A stretch of 43,260 bases of DNA from a virus (IMGVR_UViG_3300045988_009985), one strand, 5' to 3'; positions 2,703 to 39,138 are shown, counted from the first letter of the stretch. Notes: generated by a model from the letters alone, not told the origin. Program-made: numbers and translations.

Positions 2703-2926
2703 CTTCCATCCCTCTTTCTTATCACCATTTTGGCCCTCTCGCGCCTTGCGTTGTTCATGCTGTAAAAGTCGATCTCGCTGTACGCCGCGTAGCGCTTGGC
2801 CTTGTCAGCCTTGATGTCCTCCAGATACGCCGCGTACTCCTCGCACTGTCCGTGGCACTTTGGGTGCCTGCTCCGGCAGTCCTTGCAGGGCGTGCCCACT
2901 CTGTTCGTCAGACCTACCATTCCCAC
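2699..2926 (-). CDS. Small Cys/His-rich protein
   Basis: It contains CKDCRSRHPKCHGQC. It overlaps both neighbours, which suggests translational coupling. Confidence 0.55.
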   Translation of the reverse strand: MGMVGLTNRVGTPCKDCRSRHPKCHGQCEEYAAYLEDIKADKAKRYAAYSEIDFYSMNNARRERAKMVIRKRDGR

Positions 2927-3429: not shown

Positions 3430-3511
3430 CGTCCCAGCGCCTCCACGCCCTTGACGATGGCCCAGCTCAGCCACGCCGCGCCGATAAACGCCAGCGCCCA
3501 TGCAAACGCGC

Positions 3512-35704: not shown

Positions 35705-37741
35705 TCATTCCTCCTCCGGAAAATGTTCCTTTGTCACGGCGATGGGAAACGGCTCGATCTCGCTTGCCCACCGCGCCGTACCTTTCCCGTGTATGCGCTC
35801 CCAGATCAGCGGAAAGCCCGCGATGCCATCAAATAAGCTTCCCAGCGTCGCGTCCTCCGGCAGATACCGCGCCATGCGCCGCAGCATCCAGTCCCAGAAG
35901 GGCAGGGCGATGGAGTTGCCCAGCGCCTTGTACTTCGGGCTGTCCGCGTCCTTGTGTTTCTTTCCCTTCTCATCCGTCCAGTCGCCAATGTCCACCCATC
36001 CGTCCGGGTATCCCTGCAAGCGTGTACATTCCAACGGCGTCAATCGGCGCACCACCATGTTCTGCACCGGGTATGTCTCCGCGTCCTCCCGGTACGCGCA
36101 GTTCGCCTTTTCCCGTATCGTGTGGCTCACGTCCGCACAGACGACTGCGTGGCTCACTTTGCTTTCTCCTGCTCGTAATGCGTTCTTCGTTTCGCTTTCT
36201 GCCCAGTTTTCTTCCATCGCGCTTTTGGGCTGGTATAAAACCGCCCGCGCCGCGTCCGGGGTTACGCCGCACACAAGGTCTGTGCTGTCCTTAAAGTCAC
36301 GTTGCTTGCAACTGCTTGCAACCTCGGCGGCGCGGTAATCTCCAAACCCGTTCATCTGGTATGTAAGCGGCACTTGGTTTCCGCCCGTGCCCATCCTCGC
36401 CTGCAACGCCGGGACCTGCTCCCCGCACTCGCGGATGACGTCACAGGCGTGTGTCATGTCCAGCGCCACCACCGCGGGCTTATTCCCGCCGCACTCGGCG
36501 TTCAGTGTAGGAGACAGTTCCTCTTGATAGCCGATGCTCCGCGCCTGTTCACTATTGCCCAGCTTAAAACCGGCACACAATACACTGTCCCGCGCCATGC
36601 CGCCGTTTTCGTTGGCATTCAAGCTGTGCCATGCGCCATCCTGATCGTACACCCTTGCGCTCTGTGCGTCCCAAGGATTCAAACACGCAACCTCCGCGCA
36701 CACCGCAGGGCGGTCTATTGTGTTCAGGGTGTAGCTCTCGTCCGTTTTCCAGCCTTTCCCGTTGCATCCGGCGGTATCGGCGAGGTCAATGCCGTTTCCT
36801 TGCAGACAGAAAATCGTCTGATCGTTTCCTCCGCCATCGTGGTTATGGCTCTCTCCGCCGCCCTGCCATCTGGTGGCTTTTCCGTTGATGGGGATAGCCG
36901 TTGCAAATACGCCATGCGAATGTGCAGCAGAAATGGTGTTCGCCGGGTCGCCCGGTTCTCCTACGCCAAATCCTGTTCCGCGCCCTAACGCTTTGCAGCG
37001 CGTAGCCACCATCAGGTTAATAGGCGTGGGCGTAAAAATCGTCTGGTCATTGCCCGTACCAAGCGTTCCGCTTTTCTCCGTCTGCACTAAAGCGCCTTTT
37101 CCTCCTCCGTCACAGCCCCCCCTGATGCGGACTGCATAAGAAGCACCTCTTTCAGCCGCTCCGGCAGGTCCTTCCCCCGCCGCTCCGCTCTCCGCAGGAT
37201 GCCCAGACACGCTTTCGCGGTCAAATTGTATTTGGGCAGCGGATTCACCTCCAAAATCTGCGACAACCGAGATTCTTCGGCGACGCTGTGGGGTCCCCAG
37301 ACGGATAACATTTCCTGTACGGCTGTCTCGGATGGTTTTTCCCCAGTCCTTAGCGTCGTGAGTTCGCCAAGCGATAGACCACCCATCACCGTCAATGGCT
37401 CCTGCTTTTGTCCATTTCTGCTTGTCCGGCAGTCCAGATAGAGAAAATCCTGGTTCTGCGATACGCGCAATTTCTTCCAGCACGGCTGCGAAGTCTTTTC
37501 CTCTGTTGCTGCTGAATGCTCCGACAACGTTCTCCCAAACGAGAAACCGAGGTCGGACCATGTCACCTGTCCGTCCATTCCGTTTGTCCTCCGCTCTCAT
37601 TTCTTTTACGATGCGCACCTGCTCCATAAACAAGCCGCTTCGCGCTCCCGCCAGTCCGGCGCGTTTTCCGGCGATGGATAAATCCTGTCTAACAAGGTGA
37701 ACCACCTGTAATACACCAAATGGGTTCAATCTCTGCCCCAT
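35705..37741 (-). CDS. DNA (cytosine-5) methyltransferase homologue with permuted motif order and no in-frame catalytic Cys. It may be a pseudogene or a recoded gene.
   Basis: In order, the ORF carries QDLSIAGKRAGLAGARSGLF (second half of motif IV), ENV, PQRRRR, a long variable region (FCLQGNGIDLADTAGCNGKGW), RRLTPLECTRLQGYPDGW, GNS, and then, at the C-terminus, LGSLFDGIAGF...WASEIEPFPI (motifs I-II). Confidence 0.8.
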   Translation of the reverse strand: MGQRLNPFGVLQVVHLVRQDLSIAGKRAGLAGARSGLFMEQVRIVKEMRAEDKRNGRTGDMVRPRFLVWENVVGAFSSNRGKDFAAVLEEIARIAEPGFSLSGLPDKQKWTKAGAIDGDGWSIAWRTHDAKDWGKTIRDSRTGNVIRLGTPQRRRRISVVADFGGESAAQIQFDRESVSGHPAESGAAGEGPAGAAERGASYAVRIRGGCDGGGKGALVQTEKSGTLGTGNDQTIFTPTPINLMVATRCKALGRGTGFGVGEPGDPANTISAAHSHGVFATAIPINGKATRWQGGGESHNHDGGGNDQTIFCLQGNGIDLADTAGCNGKGWKTDESYTLNTIDRPAVCAEVACLNPWDAQSARVYDQDGAWHSLNANENGGMARDSVLCAGFKLGNSEQARSIGYQEELSPTLNAECGGNKPAVVALDMTHACDVIRECGEQVPALQARMGTGGNQVPLTYQMNGFGDYRAAEVASSCKQRDFKDSTDLVCGVTPDAARAVLYQPKSAMEENWAESETKNALRAGESKVSHAVVCADVSHTIREKANCAYREDAETYPVQNMVVRRLTPLECTRLQGYPDGWVDIGDWTDEKGKKHKDADSPKYKALGNSIALPFWDWMLRRMARYLPEDATLGSLFDGIAGFPLIWERIHGKGTARWASEIEPFPIAVTKEHFPEEE
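37087..37578 (-). CDS. Embedded alternative-frame ORF (163 aa) inside the MTase gene
   Basis: GGAGG lies 9 nt upstream of the ATG. The C-terminal part reads LSQILEVNPLPKYNLTAKACLGILRRAERRGKDLP. GC3 is higher than in the MTase frame over the overlap. The ORF ends at a G7 tract. Confidence 0.4.
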   Translation of the reverse strand: MDGQVTWSDLGFSFGRTLSEHSAATEEKTSQPCWKKLRVSQNQDFLYLDCRTSRNGQKQEPLTVMGGLSLGELTTLRTGEKPSETAVQEMLSVWGPHSVAEESRLSQILEVNPLPKYNLTAKACLGILRRAERRGKDLPERLKEVLLMQSASGGAVTEEEKAL

Positions 37742-37772
37742 TTATTTTCGTAATATCGCCTAAATGTTTCAC
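37689..37772 (-). CDS. 27-codon ORF encoding the missing MTase segment up to the catalytic Pro-Cys
   Basis: AGGAGGTG precedes the GTG at 37772. The ORF reads VKHLGDITKINGAEIEPIWCITGGSPC and then TAG. The downstream ORF frame resumes 4 nt later with QDLS. Confidence 0.6.
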   Translation of the reverse strand: MKHLGDITKINGAEIEPIWCITGGSPC

Positions 37773-37784
37773 CTAAATCACCTC

Positions 37785-38060
37785 CTAATCTCCAAACACA
37801 ACGCCGCACTCGTCCTTCAGCACGTCCTTGATGTGCTTCCGCTTGATGCGGCCTTCGTTTATCTCCTCCGCCAGTTTCTCCAGGCACTCGTACAGATACG
37901 CGATGCTCTGCGTGTCCCGGCTGTCCGCTGTCTCCTCCTGGACGTGCCAGCCGCACTTGTCGATAAGTGCCATCGCCACCATGTCCATGCACTCCTGCGT
38001 GCCTCTGCGCTTGCCGTCCATAAAAATCCGGTCGTCCCGGCTCAAATGCTGCTTGCCCAT
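37785..38060 (-). CDS. Hypothetical protein (91 aa)
   Basis: The ORF lies between the PAPS-reductase-like gene and the MTase. No motif was recognised. Confidence 0.5.
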   Translation of the reverse strand: MGKQHLSRDDRIFMDGKRRGTQECMDMVAMALIDKCGWHVQEETADSRDTQSIAYLYECLEKLAEEINEGRIKRKHIKDVLKDECGVVFGD

Positions 38061-38061
38061 G

Positions 38062-39138
38062 TCAATACCTCACTCCGATGTAGTCCAGCACCCGCGCATA
38101 GCCGAGGCCGTCCTTCGTGGGCTTCCACAGCCCGTCCGTGTCAAATGCGCCGCCGCCGATGCAGATCGCATAGTGCGTCGGGTGCGTCAGTTTCATGCGC
38201 TGAAATCGGTTGATGCCTTTTTCAAGATGCGCCCCGAAACCGCAGAACATACAGCCCGTCCTCTGGCAACCCGTGCAGTGCAACTTGCAGTCGATCAGCG
38301 TAGCGCCGTAGTCGTTCTCGCCGTCGCTGGCCACGATGTCACCGTACACGCTGGCGTAGGGCAGTTGGTGGTCTACTATAAACCGCAGCACATCCTGTTC
38401 CGTCCAAAAGCTCATGGGCTTGCCCATCGGTCGCTTGCCCTCGAAGGCGTTGCACCCAGTATTCAGCCAATACGTCATGCGAAGTCTGCTTTCCTCCGCC
38501 ATCGTCGCTGTTGTAGCCTGCTGCCCGGTTTTGTGTGCGTAGGTTTTTAGCGGTGACTTTTTCATAATGGCGCAGCACGTCGAGGAGATTACAAACGGTG
38601 CGTACAACAGATATTCCCATTTCTCGCAGTTGTAGACAGACGGCTGACCGTCTTTTCGCACGGCTTCCCCTCGCAGCCGCTTCATTCTCAAGCCGTTTGG
38701 GTTCCTGCGGGCTTCGCTGACATATCCCGCAACCTCTTTGCTCACAATGCTGTACCCGTACTTCGTCACAACCTGCCGGATGTTCATCTTCGGACGCAGA
38801 CGGTGAAGATTTACGGTCACGCGGGGAAATTCCCTCCGCAGCCAGTCGGCGTACTCATTCACGAACTTCTGAATTTCAGGGTATTCCAGCCCTGTGTTCA
38901 CGAACACCAGATTCAGCTCCCAGGGCGGTGTCCTGAAGCTCGACAGGTACCGCGCCGCCAGATACGCCAGTACCGTGCTGTCCTTGCCGCCGGAGAAACT
39001 GACATAGCACTGTCCGCCCCATGCGGTGTACCACTCGTCCAGCTTTTCGTAGGTGGTCAGTTCCTTTGCCGTCAAATCCAGCGCCATCAGTTTCCTTGCC
39101 GCCTCTTTTGTCAGCGGCGTATTTGTCGGCATTATCAC
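38062..39138 (-). CDS. PAPS-reductase/DndC-like PP-loop ATPase with a C-terminal Cys cluster
   Basis: SFSGGKDS is the PP-loop. The C-terminus carries CTGCQRTGCMFCGFG. Confidence 0.8.
   Translation of the reverse strand: MIMPTNTPLTKEAARKLMALDLTAKELTTYEKLDEWYTAWGGQCYVSFSGGKDSTVLAYLAARYLSSFRTPPWELNLVFVNTGLEYPEIQKFVNEYADWLRREFPRVTVNLHRLRPKMNIRQVVTKYGYSIVSKEVAGYVSEARRNPNGLRMKRLRGEAVRKDGQPSVYNCEKWEYLLYAPFVISSTCCAIMKKSPLKTYAHKTGQQATTATMAEESRLRMTYWLNTGCNAFEGKRPMGKPMSFWTEQDVLRFIVDHQLPYASVYGDIVASDGENDYGATLIDCKLHCTGCQRTGCMFCGFGAHLEKGINRFQRMKLTHPTHYAICIGGGAFDTDGLWKPTKDGLGYARVLDYIGVRY

Follow-up and report, generated by a model that had tools for sequence, protein, structure and literature searches.

A circularly permuted cytosine-5 methyltransferase family in phages of gut Oscillospiraceae, and a conserved TAG-N junction in its catalytic motif that may call for +1 recoding

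The gene examined here lies on the minus strand of a 43,260-nucleotide (nt) viral sequence, IMGVR_UViG_3300045988_009985 (the window, by which we mean this whole stretch). It carries the motifs of a cytosine-5 DNA methyltransferase (C5-MTase) in a circularly permuted order, and its catalytic Pro-Cys-Gln (PCQ) motif is divided between two reading frames by a TAG stop codon and one extra base (TAG-N). The permuted order is shared by a large family in phages and prophages of gut Oscillospiraceae, many members of which have an intact PCQ. We think it probable that the locus encodes a functional phage DNA (cytosine-5) methyltransferase that is naturally circularly permuted, and with about the same confidence we propose that a full-length enzyme of the TAG-N class would need a net +1 change of frame at UGU-UAG-A, which would join GGSPC to QDLS. 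Judging from the comparison of alleles, TAG-N is ancient and is held between two stretches under purifying selection.

A permuted methyltransferase family

The gene opens with a GTG codon and a 27-codon leader in frame 0 that ends at the TAG, and CAG GAT TTA TCC (QDLS) begins at 37687 in the frame of a 678-amino-acid (aa) open reading frame (ORF; 35705..37741; Table 1). An earlier reading made from the sequence alone (the sequence-only reading) had described this arrangement; the coordinates, Shine-Dalgarno (SD) sequence, GTG, 27 codons, TAG plus A, QDLS and motif positions that it gave were all found again in the sequence, as was the placing of the PC of PCQ in another frame than QDLS. It had also claimed that the enzyme is cut between motifs II and III, with motifs I-II carried at the C-terminus, and a profile alignment bears this out. 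The 678-aa ORF matched PF00145 with 65.6 bits (cut-off 22), and the pieces of the gene aligned out of order: the leader together with the QDLS part covered profile positions 46-131, the C-terminal 131 aa positions 269-315, and the last 81 aa positions 4-41. When the I-II segment was placed before the leader, the de-permuted concatenation gave one contiguous match (5-131) of 84.6 bits, compared to 64.6 bits without I-II.

In alignment, the N-terminus falls at residue 59 of M.HhaI and at residue 48 of M.HaeIII, both between motifs II and III and upstream of motif IV. The motif order is III-IV-VI-VIII-TRD-IX-X-I-II (TRD, target recognition domain), and not the canonical order from I to X. Motif I (FxGxG) and motif II are present at the C-terminus as LFDGIAGF...WASEIE, with F, G and G invariant in 104 diverse members, and motifs VI (ENV), VIII (QxRxR), IX and X (GNS) were all found. 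As in the engineered Type B permutants discussed below, the new N-terminus falls between II and III and motif X is fused to motif I, here through a linker of about 10 residues. The catalytic Pro-Cys, which in the window does not share a frame with the rest of the enzyme, is in frame in the relatives P0003, P0006 and P0008; the match of TIGR00675 to P0006 was under the cut-off of that model.

An exhaustive HMMER search returned 28,858 relatives. Motifs I-II stood at the C-terminus in 119 of the 120 closest homologues and at the N-terminus in none, and an uninterrupted N-terminus of the form M[VLIK]HLGDI..GGSPCQDLS was present in 82 of these 120. Intact permuted proteins of 350-700 aa made up 108 of the best 150 representatives at 50% clustering, giving a family of at least 108 clusters at 50% identity. 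The hosts, as read from prophage copies, are Oscillospiraceae (Oscillibacter sp. 1-3, Dysosmobacter and metagenome-assembled genomes (MAGs) of Clostridia). A structure prediction with AlphaFold2 on 53 close homologues, a shallow alignment, gave a predicted local distance difference test score (pLDDT) of 32, and the diverse alignment of 104 sequences was used instead. With it, the 356-aa relative P0216 was modelled at pLDDT 83 with a predicted template modelling score of 0.78, and the C-terminal I-II segment formed a beta-alpha-beta-alpha unit at pLDDT 95-98. The best matches of this model in the PDB were M.HhaI, M.HaeIII, M.MpeI and DNMT3A, obtained with Foldseek in a comparison that depends on sequence order and from which the packing of I-II is not readable. 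In the literature, we found no report of this permutation or of such a frameshift in methyltransferases.

Motifs VIII and IX are separated by some 400 variable residues that include several TRD-like modules. This variable region has the module boundary G(T/G)GNDQTIF twice (36810-37060, minus strand), and the homologues range from 509 to 678 aa and differ by whole modules, which together suggest that target-recognition units are gained and lost as modules. It is on these repeated TRD-like modules, and on their gain and loss among homologues, that we base the view that the window enzyme is probably multispecific.

A tandem duplication is a plausible origin of the permutation. The sequence-only reading had seen a fossil ribosome-binding site and start codon in the X-to-I linker, in the form of GGAGG followed by ACG. 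This element is indeed present in the window, but it is confined to a sub-lineage with YLPE[GD]AT (59 of 143 unique linkers) and is not a trait of the family, other lineages having YERDAT-M and similar linkers. The codon after ACG is ATG in 45 of the 143 unique linkers and CTG in the window (35845-35843, the first codon of the I-II piece), with no conserved SD sequence; across the family, this codon is the likely fossil of an ancestral start.

The TAG-N junction and its leader cassette

TAG and one further base were found exactly between the Cys and Gln codons in IMG/VR contigs, GenBank viromes, MAGs and an isolate genome. The pattern GGN GGN TCN CCN TGY TAG N CAG GAY occurred in at least 119 IMG/VR contigs and its CAA version in 58 more, which amounts to at least 177 viral contigs; every match was a permuted gene, and the Gln codon after N is not restricted to CAG. 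Of the two GenBank virome relatives, one has TAGA and the other TAGC; their leaders are 99% identical to that of the window, they differ by about 10% over the rest of the gene, and the isolate genome of Oscillibacter sp. 1-3 carries TAGC. The recurrence of the junction in GenBank viromes, in these IMG/VR contigs, in many samples, in MAGs and in an isolate genome implies that TAG-N is no assembly error, and the search of related phage and prophage genomes shows a large family in place of a local accident.

The base N was A in 111, C in 63 and T in 6 of the matches, and G in none (122 of CAG type, which take in the window, the two GenBank loci and contigs beyond the 80 listed, and 58 of CAA type). 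Counted by lineage, it was C in 15, A in 9, T in 4 and G in none, and among the ordinary TAG stops of the window the next base was G in six of eight. IMG/VR scans for other 4-nt inserts at the site (VNNN, TBNN and TAHN) gave 18 matches, none of them a methyltransferase, so that TAA, TGA and sense codons are absent and the stop is invariably TAG.

Clustering of the leaders at 85% identity left about 28 genuine lineages, which differ by 20-50% of their nucleotides and all encode V.H.GD[IV].K...G.E..PV....GGSPC (motifs III-IV) in frame 0. Upstream of TAG-N, the variability at the three codon positions of frame 0 was 0.49/0.38/1.18; downstream of it, the frame +1 values were 0.61/0.50/1.22, and the codon periodicity changes frame exactly at TAG-N. 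Over the first 100 codons past the shift, the median ratio of nonsynonymous to synonymous substitution rates (dN/dS) among interrupted alleles was 0.22, with dS up to saturation, and the 20 codons after CAG, which form the catalytic loop, are conserved in the +1 frame. In one lineage, stops in the +1 frame confine the window for a shift to the last 14 nt before TAG. A lesion that is not conserved and a relaxed constraint, as would mark a pseudogene, were not seen, and the suggestion that the gene had been freshly inactivated is contradicted by a TAG-N common to about 28 diverged lineages with purifying selection on both sides.

The junction belongs to a conserved cassette. The start codon was GTG in 120 of 121 interrupted loci, the leader had exactly 27 codons in 115 of them, and GG(A/G)GGTGAT was kept 5′ of the GTG almost throughout the interrupted alleles, also in those with another gene upstream. 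GGTGGTTCACCTTGT was identical in most lineages although the leaders had diverged, as were the five codons before TAG (GGT GGT TCA CCT TGT), which are rare synonyms in the phage. The Cys codon was TGT in 26 of the 28 interrupted lineages, compared to 9 of 16 intact ones, and GGTGGT was present in 20 of 28 against 1 of 16. Counting all SD-like GGUGG/GGAGG elements at a spacing of 5-7 nt, 25 of the 28 interrupted lineages had one (20 GGTGGT, 2 GGTGGC, 2 GGAGGC and 1 GGAGGT) and 6 of the 16 intact lineages did. The sole consensus pairing given by RNAalifold was a 5′ hairpin of 4 bp, GGUG-GUU-CACC, and was not significant (z = -1.4). The sequence-only reading had called the locus a mosaic, and this holds: the leader has a GC content of 0.39, with G or C at the third position of 7 of its 27 codons, against 0.55-0.68 for the remaining gene, and forms a distinct cassette.

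The intact permuted alleles (79 loci) have the upstream gene in common with the interrupted class, and the DNA of the two classes after CAGGAT is identical. At the cassette position they have the G/C-ending codons GGC GGC AGC CCG TGC, and they start either with ATG after a weak SD sequence or with ATA after a strong one. In L171 (~2985-2995) and about 25 other intact-class loci, ATA (Ile) stands at the start position, 6 nt after a strong SD sequence, GGGGGTGA/AGGAGGTGA; this suggests that ATA may serve as a very weak non-canonical start and as another means of low expression. Since identity between interrupted and intact leaders nowhere exceeds 82%, the SD sequence, GTG, A/T-rich leader and TAG-N are inherited as one old unit.

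The proposed recoding and its alternatives

In the event that we propose, the strong SD sequence would load ribosomes on the GTG, and these would translate 27 codons rich in A/U-ending triplets that are rare in the phage. At the UAG, tRNA-Cys would be wobble-paired on UGU in the P site, and the UAG, which is read by release factor 1 (RF1) only, would stand in a weak A/C/U context. Termination would be slow, some ribosomes continuing in the +1 frame and the others releasing a cheap 27-residue peptide, and the site would thereby hold back, from within the gene, the output of a methyltransferase that may be costly; throttling of expression is the likely purpose. More generally, intact and recoded alleles coexist, some intact alleles have weak ATA starts and the poly-G tract described below is variable, which together suggest a strong selection for a low or conditional methyltransferase level.

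Should recoding take place, roughly an even chance or slightly better falls to a +1 shift with occlusion of the U of UAG, in which AGN would be decoded and Arg or Ser inserted, the product being GGSPC-(R/S)-QDLS in general and GGSPC-R-QDLS in the window. A near-cognate Gln-tRNA that reads UAG and re-pairs on CAR 4 nt on, leaving an exact PCQ, comes a distant second, and a host tRNA reading four bases would be improbable. The anticodon of tRNA-Cys, which we take to be GCA, has no pairing on GUU after a move from UGU, and because tRNA-Cys cannot re-pair there the event would be closer to those of antizyme and Ty3, with occlusion in the A site, than to that of prfB.

A programmed net +1 event is favoured because reinitiation, a phage suppressor or four-base tRNA and a conserved 3′ structure have each failed as explanations. 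Downstream reinitiation past the CAG is excluded by the conservation of the 20 catalytic-loop codons in the +1 frame, and no phage tRNA reading UAG or UAGN was found in the window or in 45 related loci. The phage of locus L052 encodes a tRNA-Gly(CCC) of 82 nt (2766-2847, minus strand) in which one additional base separates the D stem from the anticodon stem and the variable loop is long; it was considered as a four-base reader and rejected, its anticodon loop having the normal 7 nt. The sequence-only reading had left three options for the locus, and of these a permuted enzyme that needs recoding at TGT-TAG-A is the best supported, by conservation, selection and dN/dS. It also speaks for this option that 66 of 143 interrupted genes, TAG-N apart, run unbroken through motifs I-II; in the intact class, 54 of 76 do. 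A gene switchable at TAGA is not borne out, as there is no repeat at TGTTAGACAG; it is a separate poly-G tract that varies among relatives.

Several observations weigh against the proposal of programmed recoding. The lack of pairing on GUU departs from prfB, as does the distance of the SD-like element from the P-site codon, which is 5-7 nt and not 3 nt. A conserved 3′ stimulatory structure was not found, single-sequence folds being inconsistent and RNAalifold giving none. With a simple +1 shift, the highly conserved PCQ would receive an Arg or a Ser between its Cys and its Gln, which the enzyme might not tolerate. Further frame breaks occur in 54% of interrupted and 29% of intact alleles, clustering at poly-G tracts in both classes. 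Several lineages without the GGTGG element are truncated copies. Finally, one IMG/VR dataset identifier (3300045988) accounts for many of the contigs, and independence among the lineages is incomplete.

The alternative that fares best, although still unlikely, is an exact skipping of four bases, in which a near-cognate Gln-tRNA pairs on UAG and then on CAR, or UAGN is read by a host tRNA whose anticodon loop is enlarged; GGSPCQDLSIAGK would be the peptide expected of such skipping. UAG alone is used, and it is the one stop codon near-cognate to tRNA-Gln; CAG or CAA always follows after one free base, and the spacing of QDLS is unchanged relative to intact alleles. Arg and Ser codons alternate between close relatives, which suggests that N does not specify a meaningful residue. 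Against this, the next frame-0 codon after UAG is an ordinary sense codon, so that a hop would compete poorly, and neither the window (no tRNA) nor the 45 related loci (no unusual tRNA) supply a reader. Natural quadruplet decoding is essentially unknown in bacteria (PMC5009743).

Somewhat less likely again is that TAG-N marks a long-lived null allele, kept as an inactive enzyme sometimes pays, such as where the host has a methylation-dependent restriction; recombination with intact alleles would uphold the coding signal on either side. Both classes do circulate in one phage group with identical downstream DNA, secondary breaks are more frequent in interrupted alleles, and the Oscillibacter sp. 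1-3 copy is also cut by a mobile element. However, the leaders of the two classes, at no more than 82% identity, show no sign of recent exchange; TAG is invariant while the adjoining base and synonymous sites vary, and N avoids G; the SD/GTG/rare-codon cassette is co-inherited; and dN/dS within the class is about 0.2 at saturated dS. A null allele is unlikely because it would have no reason to keep the TAG, its context, the 27 upstream codons and the SD/GTG cassette.

A two-piece enzyme has lower standing still, and we regard it as quite improbable. Here, termination at the TAG would free a 27-residue peptide ending in the catalytic Cys, ribosomes would reinitiate at a +1-frame GTG within GGT-GGT, 18 nt before the CAG, and the two pieces would assemble non-covalently. 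Such a GTG is present in 60 of 68 unique junctions, and natural split C5-MTases (M.AquI) and complementing fragments are known (in part PMC5944983). In four lineages, however, the open +1 window offers none of the starts ATG, GTG and TTG, among them L315, whose 704-aa gene is complete; the +1 peptide VVHLV(R/S) lacks conservation, no SD sequence precedes the internal GTG, and the break falls inside the catalytic loop. The sheet of C5-MTases has the strand order 3-2-1-4, in which the strands of the 27-residue peptide are not neighbours, and this also counts against a separate peptide. Lastly, an assembly artefact, or a TAG reassigned to Gln, has the presence of an in-frame TAG and nothing else in its favour and can be dismissed, as the same junction occurs across independent studies, assemblers and an isolate genome, while read-through under code 15 would leave the wrong frame in a window that has no tRNA, ends ordinary genes with TAG and, read with the standard code, is 94% coding.

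Overlapping frame, neighbourhood and relation to known systems

Within the main coding part lies a nested 163-aa ORF, which in the window includes SRLSQILEVNPLPKYNLTAKACLGILRRAERRGKDLPERLKEVLLMQSASGG and which may be a true overlapping gene. Its stretch SRLSQILEVNPLPKYNLTAKACLGILRRAERRGKDLPERLKE (~37272-37147) is under selection in the nested frame. From motif VIII to the G7 tract, variability among 166 unique relatives peaks at MTase codon position 1, which is nested-frame position 3, and over VVADFGG/LSQILE all three codon positions are constrained; at motif VIII itself, the periodicity is that of the MTase frame (0.30/0.10/0.86). In public data, 321 small proteins of 64-131 aa with the form M[KR]WEDDGAW...LSQILE... 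have been called, and the nested-ORF protein had no Pfam, PHROG or NCBIfam match. The nested overlap is also found in a relative with canonical motif order, L329. In many relatives the nested ATG lies 8 nt past another poly-G run, and in L327 (~3494-3503) a change of TAC to TAA ends the MTase frame 4 nt before this ATG, the callers reporting ORFs of 123, 77 and 289 aa.

The G7 tract within the MTase ORF is in frame, and tracts of G5, G8 and G9 in relatives break the MTase frame, which then ends at CTG TGA C; P0020 (41 member sequences) is the G8 form of the window gene. The G8 and G9 forms create AGGGGGGGG-CUG-UGA-C, which is like the prfB cassette AGGGGG-UAU-CUU-UGA-C. The variable poly-G could reflect phase variation, errors of assembly or another site of recoding. 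A further poly-G (WPTWGG) varies likewise in relatives such as L063, and the L052 phage that encodes the tRNA-Gly(CCC) has an MTase with a G8 tract. The combined proposal of a permuted family, an obligatory UAG-specific recoding without tRNA re-pairing inside PCQ that serves as a throttle, and a second protein in the +1 frame of the catalytic domain, beside a variable poly-G tract, all three of them unreported, is tentative, and we place it a little short of even.

The gene is also a target of homing elements, since inteins have inserted after motif VI: in P0029, P0045, P0051, P0075 and others, an intein (PF14528, PF13403, PF14890) follows directly after ENV (ENV|C...HN|C-GAFSS). In the Oscillibacter sp. 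1-3 prophage (L245, NZ_KE159710, 5246-7959), the MTase is cut after ENV(P) by an element with three consecutive tyrosine-recombinase genes (337, 336 and >209 aa), which is recombinase-in-trio-like; similar sequence follows ENV in L078, L043 and L091, and an Rfam search of the L245 inserted element gave no match.

The window is a siphovirus-like genome with portal, terminase and 3′-phosphoadenosine-5′-phosphosulfate (PAPS) reductase genes. Upstream of the MTase lies the PAPS-reductase-like gene (PF01507, phrog_424; 38062-39138, minus strand), and directly 5′ of the MTase is a 91-aa ORF (37785-38060, minus strand) whose TAG stop overlaps the MTase SD sequence. The features of the locus are collected in Table 1.

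Table 1. Features of the permuted methyltransferase locus, with positions counted along the window
Feature	Position	Strand	Remarks
SD sequence AGGAGGTGAT	37777..37786	-	strong and extended; 4 nt 5′ of the GTG start
Leader, frame 0	37692..37772	-	27 codons; GTG start 37772-37770; reads VKHLGDITKINGAEIEPIWCITGGSPC; motif III (GDI) and first half of motif IV with the catalytic Cys, TGT 37694-37692
AGGTGGTTCACCT	37695..37707	-	SD-like element or possible 4-5 bp hairpin GGUG-GUU-CACC, just 5′ of the shift site
Proposed recoding site UGU-UAG-A	37688..37691	-	TAG stop 37691-37689 and extra A 37688
Main coding part, frame +1	35708..37687	-	660 codons from CAG; stop TGA 35707-35705; order QDLS (rest of motif IV), VI, VIII, variable region, IX, X, linker, I-II
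Nested ORF	37087..37578	-	163 aa; frame +2 if counted from the leader, +1 if counted from the MTase frame
Motif VI (ENV)	37526..37534	-	sequence and PF00145
Motif VIII (PQRRRR)	37274..37291	-	
Poly-G, G7	37116..37122	-	inside the MTase ORF, in frame
Motif IX region RRLTPLECTRLQGYPDGW	35996..36049	-	PF00145 269-315; aligned to motif IX of M.HaeIII and M.HhaI
Motif X (GNS)	35912..35920	-	
X-to-I linker RMARYLPEDAT	35846..35875	-	with GGAGG 35858-35854
Motifs I-II, S-adenosylmethionine-binding, LGSLFDGIAGF...WASEIEPFPIAVTKEHFPEEE	35708..35845	-	PF00145 4-41; ends in HFPEEE, then TGA

As a permutation, the family is the natural counterpart of the engineered Type B permutants and is abundant in human-gut phages. 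Slaska-Kiss et al. (2018) found the Type B constructs cp62M.MpeI and cp58M.SssI to be by far the most active of the permutants that they tested, the activity of cp62M.MpeI being comparable to wild type, and their REBASE search found no natural Type B enzyme, for which they suggested selection against the topology as a possible reason (PMC5944983). Like these constructs, the phage enzymes have their N-terminus between motifs II and III and their old termini fused; unlike them, CG-specific proteins made in the laboratory, they form a natural phage family with a long variable region of TRD-like modules. The natural permutants of Type H (M.BssHII, M.Alw26I, M2.Eco31IC, M.Esp3I and M2.BsaI) and the plant enzyme DRM2 likewise have a non-canonical motif order, and duplication followed by truncation has been proposed as the origin of natural permuted C5-MTases. 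The cut lies in the variable region after motif VIII in Type H (PMC5944983), whereas in the phage family it lies between II and III at PF00145 position 46, and DRM2, unlike the phage family, has its motif IV region near the C-terminus (chain residues 284-353).

The Bacillus phages SPR, phi3T, rho11s and H2 encode orphan multispecific C5-MTases in which several target-recognition modules follow one another, and to which protection of the phage DNA from more than one restriction system of the host is ascribed. These have the canonical I-X order and no recoding, and in the window enzyme multispecificity would be a property deduced from the modules only. With M.AquI and phasevarions, the TAG-N locus has in common that expression of the methyltransferase needs more than one frame and that a homopolymer (G7) lies inside the ORF. 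The split in M.AquI, however, lies between motifs VIII and IX and yields two stable subunits, unlike at the TAG-N locus, and phasevarions switch at simple repeats, which TAGA is not.

For the study of recoding, the family offers a defined 19-nt cassette, GGUGGUUCACCUUGU-UAG-N, in a phylogenetically deep set of about 28 lineages and at least 177 loci. Gene callers start at spurious internal ATGs (MGQRLNPFGV...) and hence miss the catalytic cysteine. The closest bacterial parallel in outline is prfB, the gene for release factor 2, in that a conserved in-frame stop, a weak base after it, a P-site tRNA with a G:U wobble, an upstream SD-like element and a competition with termination are common to both. 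In prfB, tRNA-Leu re-pairs on UUU at CUU-UGA-C, with the SD sequence 3 nt upstream. The phage site, by contrast, is UGU-UAG-(A/C/U), where re-pairing is impossible and the SD-like element lies farther off, and it has no obvious RF1 autoregulatory logic. Textbook prfB slippage cannot explain the cassette; if the recoding proposed here is true, the cassette would therefore be a compact new model of a bacterial +1 shift or four-base skipping at UAG. Antizyme (UCC-UGA-U) and Ty3 (GCG-AGU-U) shift to +1 without re-pairing in the P site, the first base of a slow A-site codon being occluded (in part PMC5009743). These two systems are eukaryotic and have defined 5′ or 3′ stimulators (such as polyamines or a pseudoknot), whereas no such structure was found at TAG-N.

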